A stretch of DNA of 59,109 bases, counting the filler. It is 2 parts of 2 records of this genome, joined end to end, with 100 filler letters (N's around TTAATTAATTAA, not from the genome) between each part and the next. Parts side by side here need not be neighbours in the genome. Positions count along the whole stretch, not along the records: positions 28,461 to 59,109 come from SRR20825006_396; 1 more part is not named here. One strand, given 5' to 3'. The translations under genes were made by a program, and so were the position numbers. The notes beneath the pieces are model-generated. The model was not told the origin of the DNA and did not search any database. It saw only the letters and a list, made by a program, of their open reading frames with translations. Below are positions 28,461 through 51,065 of the stretch, piece after piece (the stretch's first letter is position 1; each line of letters opens with the position of its first letter).

Positions 28461-28802
28461 GGCGACGGCTCCTACATGTTCGCCAATCCGGTCGCCTGCC
28501 ACCAGATCGCGGAGGCGCTGGAGCTACCAGTTCTGGTCATCATCATGAACAATGCCGAATGGGCCGCGGTGCGCCATTCGGTCACCGACATCTATCCCGA
28601 TGGCTATGCCGCCAAGGCCAACCAGATGCCGCTGACCGCGCTCAATCCCAGCCCGGATTTCGTGCAGGTCGCCAGAGCCAGCCGTGCCTTTGCGGCCAGG
28701 GTCAACAACGCAACCGAACTAACCGAGGGTCTCAAGAACGCCCTCGCCCACATCGCCGACAAGCGCGGTCCCGCGCTGCTCGACGTCACCATGCGCAACT
28801 GA
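28461..28802 (+). CDS. Thiamine-pyrophosphate-dependent enzyme, C-terminal fragment
   Basis: Frame begins GDGSYMF...IIMNN (GDG-x-NN TPP motif) and ends GPALLDV. Confidence 0.85.
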   Translation, partial: GDGSYMFANPVACHQIAEALELPVLVIIMNNAEWAAVRHSVTDIYPDGYAAKANQMPLTALNPSPDFVQVARASRAFAARVNNATELTEGLKNALAHIADKRGPALLDVTMRN

Positions 28803-36571: not shown

Positions 36572-37906
36572 CTATTGCTCGTGGAAGGCACGCGCCATGG
36601 AGTCTGTGACCGGCTTGACCAGATAGTCGAGGAAGGTCCGCTCGCGGGTGCGCACCAGCACCTCGGCCGGCATGCCCGGGGTCGGCGAGAAGCCAGGAAT
36701 GCGTCCGATCTGATCTGGCGAAATGGTTATGCGCGCCAGATAGACGTCGCGTTGCGTGCCCTGTGTCCCGGTGATCGTATCAGCGGAAATGTACTGCACC
36801 TGGCCTTCGAGTACCGGCGTCGTGCGCTGATTGAGGGCCGTGAGGCGGATATTGGCCGCCTGCCCTTCCTTGACCTCGTCGATCTGCATGCGGGGGATCT
36901 GGACCTCGACAATCAGAGGGACGTCGGCGGGCAGGATCTCGAAGATCGGCAGGCCACTTTCGACCACGCCGCCCGTGGTATGGTAGTACATGCGCACAAT
37001 GGTGCCGGCGACCGGGGAAGAAATCGTGGTGCGGTTGAGGATGTTCTGGGCCTGCAGGGTCTGTTCGCGCAGCGCTTCGAGTTCGGCTTCAACAGTCTGC
37101 ATCTCATCGAGCGCAGCCTGGCGGACAGCGTCCCGCGCCTGAACGATCTCGCCAGTGTATTTCTCGATCTGGGTATAGGTCTCCTGGACTTCAGACTCGA
37201 GACGGGAAATATCGCCCTCGGCATCAAAGACCGCCCGTTCGACGGAGCGCACGGAAGATTGGGCCACCACACCCTTCTCGAACAGTTCGAGCATGGCCAC
37301 GTGGTCCTCGCGCAGGAGCGCCATCTGGCTTTGCATGGACGCGATCTGGGCCTGGCGGCCGCTGATGCGGAAGCGCAGGGCGGCCAGATTCTGTTCGATC
37401 AATTGCAGTTCGTTGGTGAGCTTTTCGCGCCCCGCCTTGAAATTGGTGCGCTGCCCTTCGACCACCGCGGCGATGTCAGGATTGTCCATATGGTCCTTGA
37501 CGGAATCGGGGGGCACATATTCGTCCAGTTCCAGGGCTTCGGCATTGAGCCGGGCGCGAATGGCCTCAAGCCGGATAACGCGCAATTGCAATTGCTTGGT
37601 CGCTGCACTGGCGGAGGTTTCGTCAAGCAGCAACAGGCTTTGCCCGGCGATCACCTGCTCGCCTTCGCGCACCAGCAGGTCCTTGATGATGCCGCCTTCG
37701 AAATGCTGAACGATCTTGTTCTCGCCGGTGGCAACAAAGCTGCCCTGAGCAATGACAGCGGCCGAGAGCGGCGCTGTCGCCGACCATGTTCCGAAGCCGC
37801 CAAAGGCCAGCGCCACCAGCAACGCTCCGATCCAGACCGGTGTGCGGATGGAGCGCGGTACACCGCTGTACCATTCCAGATTCTGAAGTTCACCAACGGC
37901 AGACAT
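36572..37906 (-). CDS. Type I secretion membrane fusion protein (HlyD/PrsE family)
   Basis: KIVQHFEGGII, ISSPVAGTI, TPGMPAEV, RTFLDYLVKP. Confidence 0.93.
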   Translation of the reverse strand: MSAVGELQNLEWYSGVPRSIRTPVWIGALLVALAFGGFGTWSATAPLSAAVIAQGSFVATGENKIVQHFEGGIIKDLLVREGEQVIAGQSLLLLDETSASAATKQLQLRVIRLEAIRARLNAEALELDEYVPPDSVKDHMDNPDIAAVVEGQRTNFKAGREKLTNELQLIEQNLAALRFRISGRQAQIASMQSQMALLREDHVAMLELFEKGVVAQSSVRSVERAVFDAEGDISRLESEVQETYTQIEKYTGEIVQARDAVRQAALDEMQTVEAELEALREQTLQAQNILNRTTISSPVAGTIVRMYYHTTGGVVESGLPIFEILPADVPLIVEVQIPRMQIDEVKEGQAANIRLTALNQRTTPVLEGQVQYISADTITGTQGTQRDVYLARITISPDQIGRIPGFSPTPGMPAEVLVRTRERTFLDYLVKPVTDSMARAFHEQ

Positions 37907-37909
37907 GGT

Positions 37910-40396
37910 CTAGTTCTCCTCCGATGGCTTGGACACGTTGATGGCCGTGGGATTGTTCCCCGACTTGCCGGTCAAAGCCGCCATGACCTCGGACCGCGTG
38001 CCGAACATGGAAACCGAGCCATTATTGAGCACCAGGATCTTGTCCACGACATTGAGCAGGGCTGGCCGCTGGGTGATGGTCACGACGGTGATCTTTTGTT
38101 TGCGGGCATGTTCGAGCGCCTTGGCCAGCGCCGCCTCGCCCTGTGAGTCGAGATTGGAATTCGGTTCGTCCAGCACCACCAGCTTGGGATTGCCGAAGAA
38201 GGCACGCGCCAGGGCGATACGCTGCTTCTGTCCCCCGGACAGGGGCGCCCCGTCGGCAGCGACAAAGGTCTCGTAGCCTTGCGAGAGACCGGCAATCAGC
38301 TCATGCACATCGGCCAGCACCGCGGCCTCGAAAATGTCCTTGTCGCTGACATCCTCGCGCATGCGGGCAATGTTGGCCTTGATGGTGCCGGGGAAGAGCT
38401 GCACGTCCTGCGGGAGATAGCCGATATTCTCGCCGAACTGGCGTTGGTCCCAGTTGCGCAAATCCATCAGGTCGAGCCGCACCGAGCCTGAGGTGGGCAG
38501 GATGGACCCCACCAGCATCTTGCCCAGTGTCGTCTTGCCGGATCCCGAATTGCCGATCACGGCCAGGGATTCCCCAGGCATCAGGGAGAACGTAATGCCG
38601 TTGAGCAAGACCTTCTTGTTTGGCGGTGGAACGAAAAGAATGCGCTCCACATCCAGCCGGCCCTTTGGCTCTGGCAGCAGCAGGCGTTCAAAGTTGAACG
38701 GGCTTGAGTTGAGCAGCCCCTTGATGCGTCCGAAGGAGGCGCGGAACTGAGAAAAGCCGTTCCAGCCTTCAATCGTGCCTTCAATCGGGGTGAGCGCGCG
38801 GGCTGCGATGATCGAACCAGCGATGACCATGCCACCGGTGATTTCACCCTGGATCGCCAAATAGGCGCCCCAGCCGAGCATGGCCACCTGGGTGAGCAGA
38901 CGCACGCCCTTGGAAATGCTCGACATGATGATGTTGCGATCCTGGGCCTTCACCTGAGCCTGCAGCGACCCGGCGGTATCCCTGCCCCAGATGCGCACCA
39001 CCTCGGGGATCATCGCCAGGGCGTTGATGATCTGGGAATTGCGCGACATGGAATCGAGGTGCAGGGCGGCGCGGCTCAGCAGATTATTGGCATCGGTGAA
39101 GGGGCGGGCGGTCATGCGCTGATTGATCATGGCGATGATCAGCAGGCAGATCGATGCGCCCACCACGATAAAGCCAAGCTGGGGATGAATCAGAAATACG
39201 GCCAGCACAAAGAGCGGCGCCATGGGGGCATCGAGGAAGGACAGCAACGTCCCCGAAACGATAAAGCTGCGCAATTGCTGCAGATCGCCCAGGACCTGAT
39301 AGTCGCGGCCGTTGCTATGCAGTGAGGCCCGCGCCGCAGCGCTGAGAATGGGGGAGCCCAGTTGCACGGCAATCTCGACAGCGGTGCGCATGAGGATGAA
39401 ACGACGCACCGCATCGAGAATGGCCTGCAGGACCACCGCGCCGACCACGGCGGCGGTCAGCATGACCAGAGTGTCCATCGAACGGCTTGTCAGCACGCGG
39501 TCCGAGATCTGGAACAGGTAGATCGGGATTGCCAGCACCAGAATGTTGATGAAGACCGTAAAGCCCATGACGATGCTGAGATTGGTCCGCACCACCGCCA
39601 TGCCATTGGCCAGGCTCTGGGTGAAATTGGGCTGGGCGGCGCGTTTATGGAAGCCCGCGCCGCCGCCGCCCCTGCCCCCTCCATTGCCCGAGCCGTTCGA
39701 GCCCTTGCCGCCGCCATCGCCAGAGGAGGTTTTGCTGGTCGATTTGAGCGGCCCGCGGTCACCCTCCACGATGGGTGGAATGCGGGTTTTGGGCTTGTCC
39801 GGTTCCGGCGTTCGGAAGTCGCGTTGTGGCCATTCTGCACGGGCCTGGTCTGCCTGCGCGGGTTGAGGCTCTTTGTTTGGCGGCGGCGCGGGTTCTGGCT
39901 GCGGCGCAGTCTGTCGCGCCTCGCGCGCGGGCTCTGGTTCCGCTGCGGCCTGGCGCGCCTGCGGCGCGGGATCGGTGATGGGTTCCGGTGTCGCTGTCGC
40001 ATGAGCGGCAACAGCCGGTGCCGGATCGGTCATGGGCTCTGGATGAGCCGCCACTTGCTCCGGAGGTGTTGACACATTGTTGCTTTGTGCTGGCTGATCT
40101 GAGCTCACCGGCGGTGCGGGCTGGGCCTCGGCAGGCCGTGGACGCAGGACCGCGCGGGGCGGCAGAGTGCCCTTCCCCCCCCTGGCAGATGGCGATTCCA
40201 CCGCGCGTTGCGCGCTGTTGTCCTCATCGGACTGGGATGGCGGCGCATGGCTGCGGGCCAGTTCGTCGAGTTCGGCGGCCGCCAGATGGATATCGTCCAT
40301 GATCTGATCCATCCGATCGGCCCGGACCTGGTTGGCGTGGCGCGGTTGACTTCCCAACGCCTGTTGGTCGGTGCGGCTCAGGTGCTCAAAAGTCAT
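37910..40396 (-). CDS. Type I secretion ABC permease/ATPase (PrtD/PrsD-like) with a long Pro/Ala-rich N-terminal extension
   Basis: IYLFQISDRVLTSRS, GNSGSGKT, GYLPQDVQLF, LSGGQKQRIALARA, LDEPNSNLD; no C39 domain seen. Confidence 0.92.
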   Translation of the reverse strand: MTFEHLSRTDQQALGSQPRHANQVRADRMDQIMDDIHLAAAELDELARSHAPPSQSDEDNSAQRAVESPSARGGKGTLPPRAVLRPRPAEAQPAPPVSSDQPAQSNNVSTPPEQVAAHPEPMTDPAPAVAAHATATPEPITDPAPQARQAAAEPEPAREARQTAPQPEPAPPPNKEPQPAQADQARAEWPQRDFRTPEPDKPKTRIPPIVEGDRGPLKSTSKTSSGDGGGKGSNGSGNGGGRGGGGAGFHKRAAQPNFTQSLANGMAVVRTNLSIVMGFTVFINILVLAIPIYLFQISDRVLTSRSMDTLVMLTAAVVGAVVLQAILDAVRRFILMRTAVEIAVQLGSPILSAAARASLHSNGRDYQVLGDLQQLRSFIVSGTLLSFLDAPMAPLFVLAVFLIHPQLGFIVVGASICLLIIAMINQRMTARPFTDANNLLSRAALHLDSMSRNSQIINALAMIPEVVRIWGRDTAGSLQAQVKAQDRNIIMSSISKGVRLLTQVAMLGWGAYLAIQGEITGGMVIAGSIIAARALTPIEGTIEGWNGFSQFRASFGRIKGLLNSSPFNFERLLLPEPKGRLDVERILFVPPPNKKVLLNGITFSLMPGESLAVIGNSGSGKTTLGKMLVGSILPTSGSVRLDLMDLRNWDQRQFGENIGYLPQDVQLFPGTIKANIARMREDVSDKDIFEAAVLADVHELIAGLSQGYETFVAADGAPLSGGQKQRIALARAFFGNPKLVVLDEPNSNLDSQGEAALAKALEHARKQKITVVTITQRPALLNVVDKILVLNNGSVSMFGTRSEVMAALTGKSGNNPTAINVSKPSEEN

Positions 40397-40417: not shown

Positions 40418-42421
40418 TTACGCAAGGACGGATTGCATGAGGTCGACCGGGGCCGCGTCATGGGTCGTGTCGCCAAGGGCGTAGTCGGCGTTTTCGGCGA
40501 ACGTTTCGGTGTGATCGAGAAAAGCGACGACTTCGCTCACCAGAGCATCATCATCATCGCAATCGTCCTGGGCCTCGAGGATATTGGCCTGGATCAGGAT
40601 GGTGTCGGAGTAGTGGTCGCCGCCCACTTCGATGCTGTCACCAAAGGTGTCGTAGTCCTTGATGGCGGCCATATTGACCAGCGCATTGGAGCCGGTGTCG
40701 ATGTCCCACTCGGTGGCGGGCTGCCCATCAAGGAAGGCCTTTTTCTGCAAGGCGACGAAATCCGCGTCCCCCAGAATATTGGTCTGTTCGATATAGCGCA
40801 GATCGTAGATGCTGCCGGAAACATAGAGCACGCGGGGAATTGCAATGCCCTCGAAGTCGTCAGACGCATAAAAACTGGACGGCATGGACTTGTTGCCACT
40901 GGCAAGGCCGTCCATGGCGTCCTGGTAGTGCTCGGAAATGCCGGACTTTACCTCGGTGGCCCCGACATTGTGGATCGAGGCCTGGTTCCAGAGCAGATTG
41001 TTGGAGGTGTTGAGACTGCCCGAGGCAGCATAGTCCCCATCACCGCCTGAACCGAGCATGGTGATGGTGTCATTGTCGTACAGAATATTGTTCTGCACGA
41101 TGACGTTGGCATCAAACACATTGCCGCCGACCAGGATGAGATCGAAGAGCGAGCCGATATTGGCGAAGTTCACACCGTTGAAGCCAATATTCTCGCCACT
41201 GGTCACCACGGCATCGCTGCCGGTTGCCGACAGCACACCGACATCCTCATCGGACATGAAGGTGAGCTGTTTCATCCACTCAAGGAAAATGATGTCGCCC
41301 GAGACGCATGTGACCTGCCAGTTCTGCGGCATAACATCGGGATTCGCCTCGGCGGCAGCGCCGGCGGCATCGAAGGTTTCCTGCACGAAGGTGGCGACAT
41401 TGACCGCGTTGGTTCCTCCGCCTGCCTGTGCGGCCAGCGGGAAGTCATCGTTGACATAATCAGTGTCACTGTAGGCGTTCGTCTGGATGATGGCGTCGAG
41501 CTGGTGCAAATTCCCGCCGACGACGAAATGGGTCCCGACCATGCCACCATTGAGCACGGTGGCCTCGTTGACCAGGAAATTGCCGCCACTTTTGAAGGTG
41601 ACCGACCCCTCGGTAACATCGTTCTCAATCTGGAGATGGGCCTCGTGCTCGCCAGTGACCTTGATGGTATCGGGGGGCGTTGCGTCTTCGGGCTCTTCCT
41701 GCAGATGTTCTGGCAGCGTATCGGTCAGCTCAGGCGCTTCGGTTTCGAGCTGGCCGTTGACATAGGTCCCGGTCAGGGACTCGACCAGTTCAAACTGGGT
41801 GTCGGGATTGGACTGATGGGCCGTGGCGGTCGCGTTCACCGCGTCGATGACCAGAGGGACATCGTCATAGCTAGAAATGCCGGGGCCGGCACCGATGGGG
41901 CCAAGCACGGCATTGCTTGCTGCCTGCAGCCCGAGCAAGCCAGCGTCGGCGCCGGACTGATAGGTCAAGGGCTCGTCCAGCGTGCCCATGACGAAGACGT
42001 CATCATCGGAAAGGCTGATGGTCTGGGAGAAGACCGCGATGACGGAGCCGGGCTCGGTGCCGATCAGCGGGATCACGATATCGCCTGGGCCCGTGGGCCA
42101 TTGGGACAGCGGCGAGTCCAGGTCGGAGGCGGTGAAATCGGGGGTATTGGCCAGACCAATATTTGTCGGACCGAACATCACCTCGCCGCGGATCAGGAAC
42201 TCGGGAGGGGCGTAGAACACGCCAGGGGCATAATTGCCCAGGGCATAGGCCTGGATAACGTCGACGGAAACCTGCTGCATTTCCGGCGTTTCGGGCGCCG
42301 CTTCGGCTTCATGCTCGGCCAGAGCCATTTCCAGCCGGACCTTCATGTCCTCAGCGGCAATCTGGAAGTAGCCGAGAAAGTGGGCGACAATTTCTGAAAG
42401 GGGATCACTTGGAAAAAACAC
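40418..42421 (-). CDS. Large acidic hypothetical protein with about 5 internal modules; probable T1SS substrate
   Basis: GTG start at 42421 after AGGAGG; no signal peptide; ends 21 nt before the ABC gene start; recurring Q-x5-D-x-D, G-x-N-x3-N and V-[GS]-G motifs. Confidence 0.75.
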   Translation of the reverse strand: MFFPSDPLSEIVAHFLGYFQIAAEDMKVRLEMALAEHEAEAAPETPEMQQVSVDVIQAYALGNYAPGVFYAPPEFLIRGEVMFGPTNIGLANTPDFTASDLDSPLSQWPTGPGDIVIPLIGTEPGSVIAVFSQTISLSDDDVFVMGTLDEPLTYQSGADAGLLGLQAASNAVLGPIGAGPGISSYDDVPLVIDAVNATATAHQSNPDTQFELVESLTGTYVNGQLETEAPELTDTLPEHLQEEPEDATPPDTIKVTGEHEAHLQIENDVTEGSVTFKSGGNFLVNEATVLNGGMVGTHFVVGGNLHQLDAIIQTNAYSDTDYVNDDFPLAAQAGGGTNAVNVATFVQETFDAAGAAAEANPDVMPQNWQVTCVSGDIIFLEWMKQLTFMSDEDVGVLSATGSDAVVTSGENIGFNGVNFANIGSLFDLILVGGNVFDANVIVQNNILYDNDTITMLGSGGDGDYAASGSLNTSNNLLWNQASIHNVGATEVKSGISEHYQDAMDGLASGNKSMPSSFYASDDFEGIAIPRVLYVSGSIYDLRYIEQTNILGDADFVALQKKAFLDGQPATEWDIDTGSNALVNMAAIKDYDTFGDSIEVGGDHYSDTILIQANILEAQDDCDDDDALVSEVVAFLDHTETFAENADYALGDTTHDAAPVDLMQSVLA

Positions 42422-42474
42422 GGGACACCTCCTACTCGCCAATTCGATTCCCAGCGGACTGGCGGAAGTAAGAT

Positions 42475-42507
42475 GATCTGCGCGGTGGGGGCGCTACCGC
42501 GCAGATC
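42475..42507. terminator. Strong intercistronic hairpin
   Basis: GATCTGCGCGGT...ACCGCGCAGATC perfect 12-bp arms just downstream of the D/N/S-rich gene. Confidence 0.65.
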
Positions 42508-42531
42508 TTTGCAAGCGTTGGGGGCGCTCGC

Positions 42532-43743
42532 TTATGCGTCGTCGGTGCTTGCGTCGTTGTTCATGTGGTTGTTGCCACCAACCACCGTCGCGTCGACTGC
42601 GTTCTGCTGCAGGTTGGCACCAAGCACGACTTCCATGTTGAAGGCCGAACCGCTCACCGCTGCACTGGCATCGGCCATGTTGCTGGCGGTCGAGTTGTTG
42701 CTGGCATCACCTTCAAAGTCGTTGCCGTTGGCGTCAGCATCGTCAGCATATGCATAGGCGTTGTAGGTGCCGTTGGCATTGTTCTGAACATTGCTCAGCG
42801 TGTCGTTGTCGACAATGTCGGCCACCTGGCTGATCGCGAAACCAGTGTCGCCGCCGCCGCCCGAGAAGGCGCCATTGAAGACGTTCTCGAAGTTGACATC
42901 GTCACCTGGATCGAATTCGAGCGTGCCGCTGTTGATGAACAGATTGTCCATGGTGGCGGAGCCGATATCGAGGTCGGCGAAGTCATCATCGGAGTTGAAC
43001 GAGTTCGTAGCGTCATCGTCCGAGCTGTTGAACGAGTCCTCGATTTCGACATCCACATCCAGATCAACATCCACGTCGGTGTCAGTTGAGCTGTCAGTAT
43101 TGGTCGAGTTGTCGTTCATCGAGTTATTGACGGACTTATTGTTCGCCACATCTTCAATGTGCGCATCGAGATCGACATCGGTGTCGGTATCGTTGTCCTG
43201 AGAATTGTCATTGAAGGAGTTGGTGTTACCCGAATCCTCAATTTCAACTTCGATGTCGTCGATGGTTGTAGAGCTATCCGTCGAGTTGTCGTTGTTGGAG
43301 TTCGTGTCCGAGTTATCGTTCAGCGAGTCGGCCATGGCGAAGGCCGATGATTGATCCCGGTTATCGGAATTGTCGTTGTTCGAGTTGGTGTCCGAATAGT
43401 CGTTCAGAGAATCTTCGATTTCAACATCGACGTCTGTCGAGTTGTCGGAATTGTCATTCAGAGAATCCTCGATTTCAACATCGACGTCAGTGTCTGTCGA
43501 GTTGTCATTATTCGAATTGGTATCCGAATTGTCGTTCAGGGAATCCTCGATTTCGACATCCAGGTCAGTGTCTGTCGAATTGTCGTTGTTGGAGTTGGTG
43601 TCCGAGTTATCGTTCCCGGAGTCATCCACGTCGATATCGTTGCCGGAATTCGTATTTCCGGAATCTTCAATTTCCAGCTCGATATCGTCGATGTTGGTGG
43701 AATTGTCAGTGGCATTGCCATTGTTGTTGAAGTCGTCAGCCAT
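42532..43743 (-). CDS. Asp/Asn/Ser-rich repeat protein; probable T1SS-secreted structural protein
   Basis: ATG at 43743 after GAGGAG; 403 aa; tandem NDNS..TDxDxDVEIEDSL repeats; no signal peptide, no Cys or Trp. Confidence 0.8.
   Translation of the reverse strand: MADDFNNNGNATDNSTNIDDIELEIEDSGNTNSGNDIDVDDSGNDNSDTNSNNDNSTDTDLDVEIEDSLNDNSDTNSNNDNSTDTDVDVEIEDSLNDNSDNSTDVDVEIEDSLNDYSDTNSNNDNSDNRDQSSAFAMADSLNDNSDTNSNNDNSTDSSTTIDDIEVEIEDSGNTNSFNDNSQDNDTDTDVDLDAHIEDVANNKSVNNSMNDNSTNTDSSTDTDVDVDLDVDVEIEDSFNSSDDDATNSFNSDDDFADLDIGSATMDNLFINSGTLEFDPGDDVNFENVFNGAFSGGGGDTGFAISQVADIVDNDTLSNVQNNANGTYNAYAYADDADANGNDFEGDASNNSTASNMADASAAVSGSAFNMEVVLGANLQQNAVDATVVGGNNHMNNDASTDDA
42979..43707 (-). repeat. Coding tandem repeats (about 26-aa unit NDNSDTNSNNDNSTDTD[LV]DVEIEDSL and shorter variants)
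   Basis: Two near-identical adjacent 78-bp units plus several degenerate copies visible in the translation. Confidence 0.9.
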
Positions 43744-44291: not shown

Positions 44292-45146
44292 GTGCGTGAA
44301 AACCTCTATGACGGTCTACGCAGTCCGCGTCAGATCGAAGATCGGCCAATAAAATCCGGCACACTTCGGCTTGTGTTTGTTGCCCCACAACAAGCCATAT
44401 ACCAATGCCTTAGCAGTGCATTACAGGACCATTTTCGCGATGCGGCGGTTTTTCTAGTCGACCGGATCGATGATAGCAGTGATCCGGATCATAGTGTCGG
44501 GCTGGTGCTGCTCGGCGCAGGCGCCCGGGTGATCAGCGTAGATTTCATCGAGCAATGCCGCCGGCGCTTTCCCAATGCGGCCATTGCGGTCGCCGTCGAT
44601 AATGGCCTGCCGGTCGTGGACCCGCAGCTGACCGAGCAGCGACTCATTCAGGGAATCCTGCCCACGTCCCTGCCGCTCGATGTCTGGTTCGCGCTGATGC
44701 GGCTGGTCATGGCCGGCGGTGAATATCTGCCACATGGCGATGGCGCCGCATCGGGCCATTTCGAGCCGGTGCATCGGAGCGCGCCGGGCGCGCTTCCGCT
44801 GACGCCGGCCAGCCAGGCACCAGCGCCCCGGCAAAGACTGGCCGCCGAAATTGCGGTGCAGCAGAGCGACCGGGTCCAGGGTGAGCTGGAAAACGGCCTG
44901 GATACGCTGACGGCGCGGGAGCGGGAGATACTCACTCTTGTGTCGGAAGGGTATCAAAACAAGCTGATTGCCGATCGGATGGCCTTGTCGGAACATACCG
45001 TCAAGGCGCATGTGCACAATCTGATCGCCAAGCTTCGGGTGACCAACCGCACCCAGGCGGCCGCCTATCTGCACGAACACCGGGTCGATAAGAGCGCCCT
45101 TAACACTGGATATGGTGACCGCCGTCGGGCCACCGCCCTGGGGTGA
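44292..45146 (+). CDS. LuxR-family HTH regulator with a degenerate receiver-like N-terminus
   Basis: LTAREREILTLVSEGYQNKLIADRMALSEHTVKAHVHNLIAKLRVTNRTQAA; GGAG RBS. Confidence 0.9.
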   Translation: MRENLYDGLRSPRQIEDRPIKSGTLRLVFVAPQQAIYQCLSSALQDHFRDAAVFLVDRIDDSSDPDHSVGLVLLGAGARVISVDFIEQCRRRFPNAAIAVAVDNGLPVVDPQLTEQRLIQGILPTSLPLDVWFALMRLVMAGGEYLPHGDGAASGHFEPVHRSAPGALPLTPASQAPAPRQRLAAEIAVQQSDRVQGELENGLDTLTAREREILTLVSEGYQNKLIADRMALSEHTVKAHVHNLIAKLRVTNRTQAAAYLHEHRVDKSALNTGYGDRRRATALG

Positions 45147-45634
45147 ATGCCATGCCCAGCCTGGACAAGGTGCTCCAGCAGGTCGGTCAGTTGAACTATG
45201 TGTGGACCAATACGGAAAGCCTGTTCATCTACCTGATCGCCCACCTGGCCGGAACGTCCAAGGACGCTGCGGTCATCATATTCCTGACGCTGAACACCAC
45301 GCGGGCGCGACTGGACCTGCTTGACAGGTTGGCCAAATTGCCGGCAACGCCGCCAGAGACCAGGGCGGCGGTGCTGGACCTGACCGAGCGCCTCAAGAAA
45401 GAGTCCAAGGTCCGGAACAAATACAATCATTGCATCTACTCATTCGACTCCAATGGCGAATTGAGCGGGACGCAATTGATGCGCATTGTCGAGTTTGACG
45501 ATGCGCTCAAATATGGCAAGTCCGAAGCGCTGGACGACAGGGAGTTTGAACGGGTTCAGGCCGCCATCCAGGCGATTACATCGGTCAATCGGGATTTGTG
45601 GGCGTTCTTTGCGGCCAGCGGAATCAAGCCCTGA
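45143..45634 (+). CDS. Hypothetical helical protein, overlapping the LuxR stop codon
   Basis: GTGA overlap with the luxR-like gene (alternative ATG at 45152); contains VGQLNYVWTNTES and VRNKYNHC. Confidence 0.7.
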   Translation: MNAMPSLDKVLQQVGQLNYVWTNTESLFIYLIAHLAGTSKDAAVIIFLTLNTTRARLDLLDRLAKLPATPPETRAAVLDLTERLKKESKVRNKYNHCIYSFDSNGELSGTQLMRIVEFDDALKYGKSEALDDREFERVQAAIQAITSVNRDLWAFFAASGIKP

Positions 45635-46544: not shown

Positions 46545-47675
46545 TCATGCGAAAGCGGTCAGGATCGCGCCATGCATGGGTTTGGCCTGCCACTCGCGAT
46601 CATAGGGCAGACCGCGATTGGCCGCGCTGCGCTGGGTGCGCAGCCAGGAATGGCTGTCGCTCAATCCCCAGGTGCTGACCCCCAGGACATTGTTGAACTG
46701 CAAGACGATATCGAGGTAGCGGCGGGTTTCGTCGGCCACCAGCGCATCGCGCCGCTCGATGGAGAGGCCGGTATTGGCCTCGGCGACATCGAGCTCGGTG
46801 ATCGCCACCTTGAGCCCCATGCTGCGAATATCGCGCATCATGCCATAAATGCCATCGGCATAGACATTGCCTTTGCGCAGATCCAGATGCGCCTGCAGGC
46901 CGACCGTGTCGACCGGCGCTCCGCGCGAGCGTAGGCGTTCAAGCAGCCGCAGCAGCGAGAGGCGGCGCTGGCCTTCATAGCCGCTATCATATTCGAGCCC
47001 GTATTCATTGATGACCATGCGGGCACGCGGCGCGCGGCTCTTGGCCGCCTCCAGGGCCCGCTCGATATAGGCTTCGCCGAAGGCCTTGTAGAACTGGTTC
47101 TGCCGCAACCCGTTTCCGCCGTGACTGGGTTCGATCGGTTCGTTGACCACGTCCCATTCGCGCACCTGGCTGCCATAGCGGCCAATGACCTTTGAAAAAT
47201 GATCGTCGATCAGCGCCCAGTCACGATCGGACGCCAGGGCCGAGGCCGCCCAGCGCGGCAGGCTCTTGTGCCAGAGCAGCGTGTGGCCGCGCATGGCCAG
47301 GCCATTGCGGGAGGCAAAGCTGGCGAGCTGGTCCATCTCACCATAATTGTAATTGCGGCTGGGCGCGATGGAGTCCCATTTCATGGCCCATTCAGGGGTG
47401 ATGATGGAACAGTCGCGCACAACGCTGGAGCGGAACCGGCTGTCGCCCAGGGTCGCGCTCTGAATGGCGGCGCCGAAATAAAGACCGCGCGAGGATGCCG
47501 CCGAGCGCAGTGCGCGGACCGGCGGCGGCGTGGCGGGGCGAGGCTGGCGCGCCTGCGGCTGGTCCGGGGTAGCGGTGACCGATCCGGTCTGCGTCGTGTC
47601 GACACGGGCGCAGCCGATCAGCTGCCCGACAGTCAGCGCAGCGGCTGCACCTATGATGAGATCTCGACGCTTCAC
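46545..47675 (-). CDS. Glycoside hydrolase family 10 (endo-beta-xylanase-like), Tat-exported lipoprotein
   Basis: GTG start at 47675 after GGAGG; KRRDLI twin-arginine and LIGC lipobox; PEWAMKW, RGHTLLWH, WDVVNEP (acid/base), GLQAH, ITELDV (nucleophile). Confidence 0.9.
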   Translation of the reverse strand: MKRRDLIIGAAAALTVGQLIGCARVDTTQTGSVTATPDQPQARQPRPATPPPVRALRSAASSRGLYFGAAIQSATLGDSRFRSSVVRDCSIITPEWAMKWDSIAPSRNYNYGEMDQLASFASRNGLAMRGHTLLWHKSLPRWAASALASDRDWALIDDHFSKVIGRYGSQVREWDVVNEPIEPSHGGNGLRQNQFYKAFGEAYIERALEAAKSRAPRARMVINEYGLEYDSGYEGQRRLSLLRLLERLRSRGAPVDTVGLQAHLDLRKGNVYADGIYGMMRDIRSMGLKVAITELDVAEANTGLSIERRDALVADETRRYLDIVLQFNNVLGVSTWGLSDSHSWLRTQRSAANRGLPYDREWQAKPMHGAILTAFA

Positions 47676-47889
47676 TGGTGCCTCCCCGAATCGAACACCG
47701 ACCAACCCTGCCAATAGAAAAATGAAGCAAGGACCGGAACGCGGCAATTAGACAGAACTATCTAGATCGTTGTATTAGTAGCACCATTTCAAATCAAAAG
47801 TTAGACTATCCGCTAACAGAGTCATTTGATGCGGGAGAGGTTCTGCAGAAAGCTTTGTGGTACAGCAACTTTGTTAGTGGTGAGTCGAG

Positions 47890-48528
47890 ATGCACAAGTT
47901 ATCACAAGTAGTAAACACGAGAATATTGGGCATTTCTACTGCCCTAACACTTATGGCGGCACTGCCCGCTGCGGCCGAATCGCTGGTCGTTATATCCATG
48001 GCTGGAGAGGCCTATGACGGCCCACCTAGCTTTGATCTTTTGATCGATGACAAGGTGATTGGCAGCGGCACGCTGCGCATGGCGATCGAAACCGAAGCCG
48101 ATGGGCGCCTGTTTACCAAACCGCGCCCCAGCTCGTTCCTGGAAGAGTTTTCCTTCACGGTCTCCGATGACCTGCTGACCCCGGACGCTGAAATCAGCCT
48201 GGTGCTGACCAATGACAAGTTTACCCGCATGGACGGCGCCGGCGAGGACGGGGTGCTCGACCGCAACCTGTTCATCGACTTCGTGCGGGTCAACGACATC
48301 GAGGTGACGTCAGCCGATATGGTGCTGATCCATGATGGCGATGTGGTGCAATATAACTACCAGGCGGGACTGTTGCCGATCTATGAGGCAGGGTTTCGTG
48401 CGGTGGCGCGGGCGCCCGAGGGCGGCTGGCTGAATGGCGCCGTTGCCCGGGTCGGTATGCTCGATATCCCCTTGCCCTTGCCGCGACCGAAGGATCTGAC
48501 GCTCGACGTCGGCCTGGTGCAGCAATGA
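47890..48528 (+). CDS. Exported protein with a CBM60-like Ca-dependent carbohydrate-binding domain
   Basis: Signal peptide; [19 protein letters not shown] and [13 protein letters not shown] match my recollection of the Ca-dependent xylan-binding module pattern. Confidence 0.65.
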
Positions 48529-49607
48529 GCCCGCAGCATAAAGTGACCAGGCCGGTGCGCCAGATCCGCACCGGCCAGGGGACAGTTACGCCCAAATCCA
48601 TCTGCGTAACCGGTGGGGCGGGGTTCCTTGGTTCGCATCTGTGTGCCCGCCTGATTGGCGAGGGACACCGGGTCACCTGCATCGACAATTTTCACACCGG
48701 CCGTCCGGCCAATGTGGCGGCCCTGGCGCGCAGCAACCGCTTCGAATTGGTCGAGCACGACGTGATGGACACCCTGCCCGAGCAATTGCCGGCCTTTGAC
48801 GAAATCTACAATCTCGCCTGCCCGGCCTCCCCGGTGCATTATCAGAGCGATCCGGTCCGAACCGCGCTGATCTGCGCGGAGGGTGCCGCCAATGTGCTTT
48901 ATCGTGCCCAGCGAGACGGCGCCCGGGTGATGCATGCATCAACCTCGGAAGTTTATGGCGACCCAGAAGTCCACCCGCAGCGCGAGGACTATTGCGGCAA
49001 CGTCAACACGGTCGGCCCGCGCTCCTGCTATGACGAAGGCAAGCGTTTTGCCGAGACGCTGCTCACCGACTTCGGCCGCCAAAGCGGTGTGGTGGTCAAG
49101 ATTGTGCGCATCTTCAATACCTATGGCCCCCGCATGCAGCCTGATGACGGTCGCGTGGTCTCCAATTTCATCCTCCAGGCCCTGCGCGGCGAGGACATCA
49201 CGATCTATGGCCTGGGCCAGCAGACCCGCTCGTTCTGTTACGTCGATGATCTGATCGAGGGCTTTGTCCGCCTCATGGCGTCAGGTCCGGAAGTCGATGG
49301 ACCCGTCAATATCGGCAATCCCACCGAGATTACTGTGGGCGAGTTGGCGCGCATCATCATCGAGATGACTGGTTCACCGTCAAAGCTCGTTCATCTGCCC
49401 CTGCCGGTCGATGATCCGCGCCGCCGGCGTCCCGACATCACCCGTGCCAGCACCCTGCTCGGCTGGGGGCCGCGCGTGCCCCTGACCGAAGGGCTGGAAA
49501 AAACCATCCGCTTCTTTGCCAGCCTCAACCAGACGCTGGCGCCAGCAACGCGCCGTGGACCGGTCTTTGCACCGGCCACCCAGAGTGAGCCCTTCGTACA
49601 AATCTAG
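48525..49607 (+). CDS. uxs: UDP-glucuronate decarboxylase (UDP-xylose synthase)
   Basis: [68 protein letters not shown]. Confidence 0.92.
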
Positions 49608-49634
49608 TTTTAGTAACAGAGTGAGTGATGAACC

Positions 49635-51065
49635 ATGCGCCTCATTATTATCGGTTCGGGTTATGTCGGTTTGGTTTCGGGCGCATGCCTGGCGGAGCTG
49701 GGACACCACGTCATGTGCGTGGACAATGATGCAAACAAGGTCGAGCAGCTTCAGGCCGGCCAGATCCCCATCTATGAACCGCAGCTCTCCGAGATGATCA
49801 CCCGAAATGTGGCGCAGGGACGCCTGGGCTTCACGAGCCGGTTGCCGGCGCTGGGCAAGGAGATACATGCGGTCATGATCGCGGTTGGCACGCCGCCCCA
49901 GACCAATGGCAGCGCTGATCTCAGCGCCATTTTCGCGGTCGCCGAGGAAGTTGCCTCCAAGGCCATCCATCCGCAAATGGTGATCATCAAATCCACGGTA
50001 CCGGTCGGCACTGGCGACAGCGTGCAGGCGTTGATGCACAAGGCGCGACCCGAATTGCACTTCTCGGTGATCTCCAATCCCGAATTCCTGCGCGAAGGCT
50101 CGGCCATTGATGACTTCATGGCGCCGGACCGCATCGTGGTGGGCGCCGGAGACGAAACCGCGCGCAATACGCTGCGGGCGCTCTATGCGCCGCTGGAGCA
50201 GACCGGAACGCAGGTGGTCTGCATGGGCCGGCGGGATGCCGAACTGGTCAAATGCGCCGCCAATGCGTTCCTGGCCACCAAGATCGCCTTCATCAATGAA
50301 ATGGCGGATCTGTGCGAAGCGGTCGGTGCTGATGTCGACCAGGTGGCCCATGGCATCGGGCTGGACGAGCGGATCGGCGCGGCTTTCCTGCAGGCCGGAC
50401 CGGGCTATGGCGGGTCGTGCTTCCCCAAGGACACGACAGCGCTGCAGGCCATTGCCCAGGAGCATGGGATCAATCTGCGACTGGTCGAAACCGTCATTGC
50501 CTCCAATGAGGCGCGCAAGCGCGCGATGGGCCGCCGGGTGTCGAGGGCGCTGCATGGCGACTTGTCCGGGCGGGTCGTGGCGGTGCTGGGCCTGACCTTC
50601 AAGCCCAATACGGACGACATGCGTGATTCACCGTCCCTGGCCCTGATCGATGCCCTGCAACGGGCCGGTGCAAAGGTGCAAGTGTTTGATCCGCAAGGCA
50701 TGAATCGGGCCCGTGCGCATCTGCCCGATGTCCATTTTGCGGACAATGCCTATCTCTGTGCCGAAGGGGCGGATTGCACCGTTCTGGCCACCCATTGGCC
50801 CGAATTTGCCACGCTGGACGCCGAGCGGCTGGCGCGGCTGGTGCGTAATAAGGTCTTGGTGGACCTGCGCAATTTCCTCGATCAACAGGCCTTTCTCAAT
50901 GCCGGTTTTGCGGTCCACGCCATTGGGCGATCGCCGCAGCAGCCCCGGCGCCATAACGTGGTCGCGGTGCCCCAGCTCAGCGCCCGCACCCCGTCCAGGA
51001 GGGCCTACATGAACGGGACAGCGCACCGTCCGAGCCGGGCCCTGCAAGATGGCATGAGCGGCTAG
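49635..51065 (+). CDS. ugd: UDP-glucose 6-dehydrogenase
   Basis: GSGYVGL, IAVGTP, KSTVPVG, SNPEFLREG, GYGGSCFPKD, FKPNTDDMR. Confidence 0.93.
   Translation: MRLIIIGSGYVGLVSGACLAELGHHVMCVDNDANKVEQLQAGQIPIYEPQLSEMITRNVAQGRLGFTSRLPALGKEIHAVMIAVGTPPQTNGSADLSAIFAVAEEVASKAIHPQMVIIKSTVPVGTGDSVQALMHKARPELHFSVISNPEFLREGSAIDDFMAPDRIVVGAGDETARNTLRALYAPLEQTGTQVVCMGRRDAELVKCAANAFLATKIAFINEMADLCEAVGADVDQVAHGIGLDERIGAAFLQAGPGYGGSCFPKDTTALQAIAQEHGINLRLVETVIASNEARKRAMGRRVSRALHGDLSGRVVAVLGLTFKPNTDDMRDSPSLALIDALQRAGAKVQVFDPQGMNRARAHLPDVHFADNAYLCAEGADCTVLATHWPEFATLDAERLARLVRNKVLVDLRNFLDQQAFLNAGFAVHAIGRSPQQPRRHNVVAVPQLSARTPSRRAYMNGTAHRPSRALQDGMSG

Follow-up and report, generated by a model that had tools for sequence, protein, structure and literature searches.

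We analysed a 59,109-nucleotide (nt) stretch of DNA (hereafter the window), of which positions 28,461–59,109 come from record SRR20825006_396, and describe here a type I secretion system (T1SS) locus together with two proteins, S and L, encoded beside the transporter. On the minus strand, four tightly packed genes follow each other in the order S, L, ATP-binding cassette (ABC) protein and adaptor. Gene S (42532–43743, minus strand) encodes an acidic protein of 403 amino acids (aa) that is rich in Asn, Ser and Thr, and gene L (40418–42421, minus strand) encodes an acidic repeat protein of 667 aa. The open reading frame (ORF) of S starts with the ATG at 43743, and that of L with the GTG at 42421, which is preceded by an AGGAGG ribosome-binding site and gives the same N-terminus as in the homologues; both positions agree with an earlier reading of the window from its sequence alone (the sequence-only reading). 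Residues are numbered here along the ORFs P0001 (from 42442) for L and P0002 (from 43758) for S. The two proteins carry a real, conserved and so far undescribed repeat, and they form an obligatory pair linked to the T1SS. In the reading that we tentatively prefer, and which we consider possible rather than established, S and L are two dedicated cargoes of this PrtD/HlyD-type system that act together outside the cell, S folding onto L.

Transporter genes and general features of S and L

The ABC gene (37910–40396, minus strand) lies 21 nt from L and encodes a PrtD-type T1SS permease/ATPase, of which residues 267–808 match TIGR01842 (PrtD subfamily) with 718.1 bits against a cut-off of 510. The next gene (36572–37906, minus strand) encodes a T1SS periplasmic adaptor of the HlyD family, which matches TIGR01843 with 378.3 bits against a cut-off of 208.65. 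With both scores above the curated cut-offs, the transporter genes constitute a PrtD/HlyD type I secretion system of the ordinary kind, and these families and the gene order bear out the earlier proposal that S and L belong to one dedicated T1SS operon. The ABC protein additionally carries an N-terminal low-complexity extension of about 265 aa (residues 1–265; 39602–40396, minus strand), which is rich in Pro, Ala, Gln and Gly and has no family match; the ABC homologues of other genera are likewise long (705–837 aa). ABC identity between the Rhizobium protein and its counterparts is 76% for Agrobacterium rosae and 62% for Ensifer.

S and L show the general traits of T1SS cargo, since they adjoin transporter genes, have no N-terminal signal, are acidic and contain few basic residues. 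Specifically, Asp and Glu make up 25.8% of S and 15.6% of L, Lys and Arg only 0.5% and 1.9%, respectively; S also contains 18.4% Asn, no Cys and no Trp. Neither N-terminus looks Sec-like when the translations are read by eye, as had been claimed before, and no Pfam or NCBIfam model matched S or L at E ≤ 0.1. In the ESM Atlas, L falls in clusters that are unnamed or called 'type I secretion protein'. A literature search found no published description of the S-L pair or of the module.

Protein L is built from repeats of two unlike halves

The sequence-only reading had listed three recurring motifs in L, and all of its strings are present at the places given. By regular expression, Qx5DxD occurs at residues 140, 320, 392, 450 and 553, the GxNx3N-like motif at 286, 343–348 (degenerate), 416, 480 and 584, and V[GS]G at 308, 380, 438, 541 and 606. 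One further Qx5DxD match at 574 is not conserved, and a degenerate sixth true copy lies at about Q618. Comparing half-unit profiles in a matrix shows that the unit consists of two unlike halves, namely 'a' (GxNxxxN) and 'b' (a VGG turn, then QxNxxxDxD), which together span about 43 aa with the positions of Gln and Asn fixed. The protein is thus laid out as b0, a 137-aa insert, and then a1b1 to a5b5; read in the phase used earlier (Q motif, GxN, VGG), it gives exactly five units and a final degenerate Q motif near 618. The five a+b units form the repeat core (residues 284–627; 40562–41593, minus strand), delimited by profile hidden Markov models (HMMs), the half-unit matrix and an AlphaFold2 model, with insertions in units 2 and 4. 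The b0 half (residues 126–148; 41999–42067, minus strand) has no 'a' half directly before it and contains the invariant residues Q140, D146 and D148.

The internal repeat claimed by the sequence-only reading proved to be genuine. The motif residues are invariant columns in L alignments of 23, 54 and 81 homologues; besides those of b0, the fixed positions are G286, N288, N292, G310 and Q320; N348, A350, G382, Q392, D398 and D400; G416, N418, D434, D444, Q450, D456 and D458; N482, N486, G543, Q553, D559 and D561; and N586, N590 and G608. Family HMMs built from a single repeat recover the other repeats in register with 9–16 bits, including both halves of the repeats that bear insertions. After removal of the training copy, the best of 100 residue shuffles scored 3.5 bits, and none came up to the second-best score observed. 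In the half-unit matrix, a-a pairs score 19–26, except for R2a with only 5–14, and b-b pairs score 7–40, mostly 12–40, the lowest being R0b-R5b with 6–7; a-b pairs score 4–11. Consistent with its assignment, b0 scores 16–30 with b1–b4, 6–7 with b5, and 4–7 with the a halves.

Outside the core, L has a conserved N-terminal helix (residues 14–46), in which H21, F22, G24 and F26 are nearly invariant and which is followed by a disordered linker, and it ends in a conserved hydrophobic tail with the pattern [QH]-x-[VM]-L-A in most of the 81 homologues. One L homologue from the Rhodobacterales, the 1250-aa protein P0075 of Pseudooceanicola onchidii, keeps all repeat units in spite of very long acidic inserts between them, so the unit boundaries tolerate large insertions. 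A search for longer fused forms of L returned this protein as its sole match, and no known domain fused to L was found.

Protein S joins a variable acidic tail to a bipartite conserved domain

Protein S can be divided into two regions. The N-terminal low-complexity region (42988–43743, minus strand) contains a 78-nt tandem repeat in 2.2 copies, which corresponds to a protein repeat of about 26 aa consisting of a strand-like stretch of alternating hydrophobic and acidic residues and a spacer of Asn, Asp, Ser and Thr. The first 250 or so residues show no conservation between species in the alignment and vary widely in length and composition, with Gln-, Gly- or Asn-rich versions in other genera. 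Conservation is restricted to the last 150 or so residues, whose invariant columns define a C-terminal domain (residues 258–408; 42535–42987, minus strand) of two halves and a variable linker. Regular expressions locate Qx5DxD at 311, GANLQQN at 380 and VVGG at 393. The first half holds the 'b' motif Qx5DxD (residues 311–319; 42802–42828, minus strand) with invariant Q311, D317 and D319, and the second half holds the 'a' motif with the VVGG turn (residues 380–396; 42571–42621, minus strand), in which G380, N382, L383, Q384, Q385 and N386 are invariant.

The domain is bipartite, because in S homologues of about 600 aa (from Ensifer, Aquamicrobium, Rhizobium sp. Root1203 and others; for example, loci L030, L035 and L044) a Gly/Ala/Asn-rich insert of about 300 aa separates its halves. 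The N-terminal tails of these long homologues are built from Gln/Asn/Gly repeats, not from Asp, Asn and Ser. An S homologue on a Shinella plasmid (NZ_CP069304.1, 7929–8900; locus L081) is annotated as 'fibrinogen-binding protein', probably an artefact of low complexity; its upstream neighbours are two response regulators and a diguanylate cyclase, its downstream neighbours polysaccharide synthesis genes.

S and L share the b motif

Next, we compared S with L by profile methods. In hhalign with profiles of 72–81 sequences, run by halves, the Q..DxD motif of the S N-half aligned to four Q..DxD sites of L (P 0.015–0.12), and the GANLQQN-VVGG segment of the C-half aligned to L residues 403–442 (P 0.0013). 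Both halves beat all 100 column-shuffled S profiles, with scores of 22.2 against 12.3 ± 2.2 and 26.0 against 13.2 ± 2.6. The whole S C-terminal domain had given only E 0.044 against L with profiles of 19 and 23 sequences, and the result improved after splitting and with more sequences. The S b segment scores 22, 17, 12, 18, 13 and 6 with the L b halves against a mean of 7.5 with the a halves, and two control S segments score 4–9; its best match is b0, with the score of 22. When an HMM of the S N-half was run against 12,611 stop-to-stop ORFs of 81 loci, L proteins made up 38 of its 40 top non-S matches, with individual E-values of 0.009 or worse; these matches count as a single observation, because the L proteins are all relatives. 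That the b motif is common to S and L is well supported by these profile comparisons, and the case for a common a motif is marginal. The sequence-only reading had seen one full copy of the module in S; its b part stands as a specific match, its a part is marginal, and the copy is split.

The restriction of this similarity to short D/N/Q-rich motifs would suit a rival explanation, in which S and L are independent cargoes of the same T1SS that do not bind each other and share motifs only because both must satisfy a common requirement, for example cation-triggered folding after export, as a counterpart of the RTX nonapeptide outside the RTX family, or recognition by the transporter. It would also agree with the high acidity of both proteins, with the DxD turns, which could bind cations, and with the unusual extension of about 265 aa on the ABC protein, which might contact cargo. 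The closest match of the S b segment to b0 of L argues the other way. We regard this explanation as somewhat unlikely, also in view of the gene pairing and the structure predictions given below.

S and L are obligatorily paired in 80 related loci

Scanning one genome per species yielded 300 relatives of L, from which 80 loci were kept (L001–L080), and the locus counts below refer to these. In all 80 loci, L is directly preceded on the same strand by an ORF that carries the S domain, six of these being cut by a contig end; after S and L, the ABC gene is present in 79 and the HlyD gene in 78. Such constant adjacency, seen in 80 of 80 loci from a broad spread of taxa, exceeds what two unrelated cargoes would need, and it speaks for a partnership of S and L instead of independent export. 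The hosts include Devosia, which has the closest L homologues, Phyllobacterium, Ensifer/Sinorhizobium, Rhizobium, Agrobacterium, Aquamicrobium, Chelativorans and others, and plasmid matches add Paracoccus and Sulfitobacter. Outside Devosiaceae-like loci, L identity is about 31–38%. The L family comprises about 750 clusters at 50% identity (E ≤ 0.001), nearly all of 640–720 aa. It is thus a large family with no Pfam or NCBIfam model and no solved relative, found in many Hyphomicrobiales, including plant symbionts, and in some Rhodobacterales. A family-level search with the S and L alignments returned 0 of 70 genomes, an empty answer that is uninformative by itself; these blanks were disregarded, given the 300 relatives found by the locus scan, which detected the pair in many Devosia genomes. 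Either the nearest genome of that set and its family lack the locus, or the initial filter passed over it.

Two further genes belong to the locus. A LuxR/GerE-type regulator (44292–45146, plus strand; PF00196, E 1e-19) is divergently transcribed and occurs in 59 of the 80 loci. Its gene overlaps by 4 nt with that of a conserved 163-aa protein (45143–45634, plus strand), which has no known family and no Pfam match and is listed as 'hypothetical' in the ESM Atlas. The 163-aa protein is found in 71 loci (upstream and divergent in 54, downstream of HlyD on the same strand in 16, upstream on the same strand in 1), and its sequence, at 51–98% identity (median 58%), is better conserved than those of L and S. 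The protein likely has a regulatory or accessory function in the system; its 4-nt overlap with the regulator gene suggests the former.

Rhizobial medium bacteriocins use T1SS, and the combination of a T1SS, a LuxR-type regulator and a small conserved protein without a family in one locus would also suit a two-component bacteriocin or toxin operon with the 163-aa protein as its immunity factor. T1SS-exported rhizobial bacteriocin systems are mentioned by Krehenbrink and Downie (PMC2275737). However, the 163-aa protein is more conserved than L, so conservation runs opposite to the usual toxin-immunity pattern; the gene overlap points to regulation, and no toxin or pore-forming family matched S or L. 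We thus hold a bacteriocin or toxin operon to be highly improbable.

A conserved hairpin separates S from L

Between S and L, immediately downstream of the stop codon of S, lies a GC-rich stem-loop (42475–42507, minus strand) that has a 12-bp stem and the core CUGCGCGG...CCGCGCAG. The 113-nt S-L spacer has a minimum free energy of -50.3 kcal/mol (z -4.4), a value reached by 0 of 200 shuffles. A hairpin of ≤ -20 kcal/mol is found within 110 nt after S in 79 of the 80 loci, compared with 24 of 80 for a coding control. In an alignment of 20 sequences the helix is retained, and 7 of 11 pairs show compensatory changes, a count that is biased by the picking of windows by folding energy. Judged from these features, the hairpin is probably an attenuator or a 3' mRNA stabiliser that sets the S:L ratio. 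With the hairpin placed after S and only 21 nt between L and the ABC gene, S would be made in excess and L at the level of the transporter. This layout fits an abundant small protein and a minor large one, in line with the earlier proposal that the small protein is the major subunit. Separately, a third predicted spacer helix (42430–42473, minus strand), seen only here and in the Devosia locus closest to it, pairs with part of the L AGGAGG; from its predicted fold, it could lower L translation.

The position of L, downstream of the hairpin and 21 nt from the ABC gene, is also what would be expected if only S were cargo and L an accessory of the machinery, produced in a 1:1 ratio with the transporter. 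In that case, L would either stay at the surface as an anchor, its N-terminal helix region lodged in the outer-membrane channel, or act in the cytoplasm as a holder that keeps S unfolded; the conserved helix 14–46 with the disordered linker after it, and the length of L, which is uniform among the 150 representatives listed, unlike that of S, are compatible with such a role. The composition of L (1.9% Lys and Arg, 15.6% Asp and Glu) and its conserved hydrophobic C-terminal tail argue against it, as low Lys and Arg, high Asp and Glu and a hydrophobic C-terminal tail are typical of exported T1SS cargo and not of cytoplasmic proteins. Moreover, no known retention-module family in Pfam or NCBIfam matched L. 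An accessory role of L thus appears improbable.

Predicted structures and a possible model of assembly

To place these findings in a structural frame, we examined predicted models of both proteins. The AlphaFold2 model of L (54 sequences) has a mean predicted local distance difference test (pLDDT) value of 68.7 and a predicted template modelling score of 0.69. It shows a confident all-β core at residues 280–625, with long strands broken at GG[ND]/SG[DS] and DxD, and elsewhere the N-terminal helix 14–46, a helical insert at 165–248, and disordered segments that include the C-terminal 30 residues. One fixed Gln per b half, together with the fixed Asn residues of each a half, would match the pattern of stacked solenoids. 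A Foldseek search of the L model against the PDB found nothing at E ≤ 0.001, the best E being 0.12, and the top rows, all below significance, are β-helix and solenoid proteins such as tapirin, CsgA, FapC and pectate lyases. Wide and second-look searches with VIA-align found nothing at Z ≥ 5, and among PDB sequence profiles the S/L alignments gave one chance row with E 0.43 (A3) and none (A4).

The S domain alone (46 sequences) was modelled with pLDDT 51.7 and no secondary structure, that is, as disordered, with the lowest confidence at its most conserved motifs. Because it is modelled disordered even with a deep alignment while the L core is confident, the S domain fits a part that folds on a partner, which also tells against two independent cargoes. 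A complex prediction of L residues 120–645 with the S domain returned 'weak support', with a median score of 0.41 (runs 0.07, 0.41 and 0.63) against 0.02 for the best control; the runs agreed in at least 4% of contacts, and the partner pLDDT was at least 28. In calibration, 51 of 78 solved complexes attained the mark, as did 2 of 108 mismatched pairs; with scores ≤ 0.60, only 5 of the 78 solved complexes did so, together with all 4 passing mismatches (of 180). The weakness of this prediction agrees with independent cargoes. Overall, the S-L partnership is well supported by genomics and weakly by modelling.

Taken together, our preferred reading of two cargoes acting jointly suggests the following model. 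L would fold into a rod or a sheet in which a and b β-elements alternate (b0, a1b1 ... a5b5); the conserved Gln, one per b half, and the Asn of the a halves would align from repeat to repeat, and DxD and GG[ND] would form the turns. S, made in excess and disordered on its own, would present a single b element and, across a variable linker, a single a-plus-turn element, both set behind a long, species-specific polyanionic tail. These elements would fold only on adding to a free edge of the L a/b stack, that is, by β-strand addition. L would then be a minor, pre-formed base, and S an abundant unit that decorates it or extends from it, with the acidic S tails projecting outward as a cation-binding, hydrated layer. 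If this assembly holds, it would show how a minimal β module can fix a disordered and highly charged protein to the cell surface.

Several findings weigh against this model. The similarity between S and L spans only about 17–31 columns, with single-comparison P values of 0.0013–0.12. Taken by itself, the S a segment shows no specificity for a halves, scoring on average 10.5 with them and 9.4 with b halves, and only 12 of the 40 top non-S matches of the S C-half HMM were L proteins; because of these two results, common descent of the whole module is unproven. Of the earlier view of S and L as paralogues, the match of short motifs is what stands, with the 'a' part marginal. The strand arrangement of L is known from a secondary-structure string only. 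The three runs of the complex prediction disagree and report no interface, and, going by the calibration, a result of this kind is wrong in most cases unless the prior is good. The C-terminus of S is acidic, unlike the hydrophobic tail of L, so S may use another secretion signal or none. Finally, the secretion of both proteins, the S:L ratio, their binding and any extension beyond one S per L are what we infer from the genes and models.

Comparison with known secretion and fibre systems

The Caulobacter S-layer protein RsaA is, like RTX proteins, a cargo of PrtD/AprD-type type I secretion systems, and at rsaA and hlyA the gene for the abundant cargo is followed by a stem-loop and then by the transporter genes. 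S and L resemble such cargo in that their genes adjoin an ABC transporter and an HlyD adaptor, in their strongly acidic composition with few Lys and Arg and no N-terminal signal, and in a repetitive β structure that would be expected to fold after export. They differ in the repeat itself, which is the a+b unit of about 43 aa with fixed Gln and Asn. The RTX nonapeptide GGxGxDxUx is absent by regular expression from L, from this S and from all 81 L homologues (0/81); in 15 of 75 S homologues the pattern occurs once or twice, in isolation and within Gly-rich inserts, and no S homologue reaches three. HemolysinCabind and other Pfam families likewise gave no match to S or L at E ≤ 0.1. A further difference is that two cargo genes are obligatorily paired here, with the second, L, on the transporter side of the hairpin. 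The export logic is most like that of RTX or S-layer type T1SS cargo, and the scheme of a minor and a major partner may be like that of CsgB and CsgA. The L family defines a non-RTX repeat for T1SS cargo together with an obligatory two-cargo arrangement.

With curli CsgA and CsgB, the pair has in common two proteins, here predicted to be secreted, with a shared strand-turn-strand repeat and fixed Gln and Asn, one partner being major and the other minor, as proposed for S and L. Pontibacter CsgA (8c50_A) is among the best Foldseek rows for L, with an insignificant E of 0.27 and a template modelling score (TM-score) of about 0.03–0.05. In contrast to curli, which use Sec and CsgG/E/F, S and L would be exported by a T1SS; they have no curlin repeat match (Pfam, E ≤ 0.1), are very unequal in size, with one unit against five and a half, and S bears a long polyanionic tail. 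The Fap system uses Sec and the FapF outer-membrane channel. FapC (9u4u_A) is the top non-helical row for L by VIA-align (Z 4.7, rmsd 2.9, 84 residues), at a Z far below the meaningful range, which starts at 8; Fap likewise has repeats separated by variable linkers, and S and L have no sequence match to Fap. The resemblance to functional amyloids advanced by the sequence-only reading thus fades to a hint, since the FapC and CsgA structural matches are below significance and no curlin repeat was matched.

A further reading is a new extracellular fibre made through type I secretion, in which S would polymerise head to tail on an L nucleus. The sequence-only reading had put forward such a polymer, with the large protein as a possible nucleator; the idea is plausible as a hypothesis, and the complex prediction gave weak support for binding. 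L would be a nucleus of five and a half units, perhaps tethered to the cell surface through its N-terminal helix region, and each S would stay disordered until it meets a free a/b edge and then add one b and one a-turn element. Growth would resemble a templated β-solenoid or donor-strand addition and display hundreds of species-specific polyanionic tails. We judge such a fibre quite improbable on present evidence; were it real, bacteria would have, besides curli and Fap, a third way of secreting a templated fibre, one common among Alphaproteobacteria of soil and sea, and T1SS so far without any cargo would be given one.

Rhizobium leguminosarum strains are among the carriers of the S-L-ABC-HlyD locus (L058, L061, L063, L066 and L068). 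For strain 3841, Krehenbrink and Downie (2008, PMC2275737) describe two 'enigmatic' PrsDE-like T1SS, toaDE and tobDE, for which they report neither a recognised substrate within 10 kb nor a phenotype in secretion or symbiosis. Because R. leguminosarum strains carry S-L-ABC-HlyD, toaDE or tobDE may be this locus, a question that the ABC identities between genera do not settle. S and L may then supply the missing substrates of the PrsDE-like systems (PMC2275737), and an old question would become directly testable.

Neighbouring genes

The region 46545–51065 adjoins the locus and encodes a glycoside hydrolase of family 10 (GH10), a 212-aa protein without a family and two ORFs that resemble sugar enzymes. 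These last two, one like a sugar epimerase and the other like a UDP-glucose dehydrogenase, were named by reading the translations and not by search. The GH10 gene is kept beside the locus in 10 of the 80 loci, in the closest Devosia only. The remaining window holds chromosomal housekeeping genes, including those for glutamate-cysteine ligase, Tex and a resistance-nodulation-division (RND) pump.

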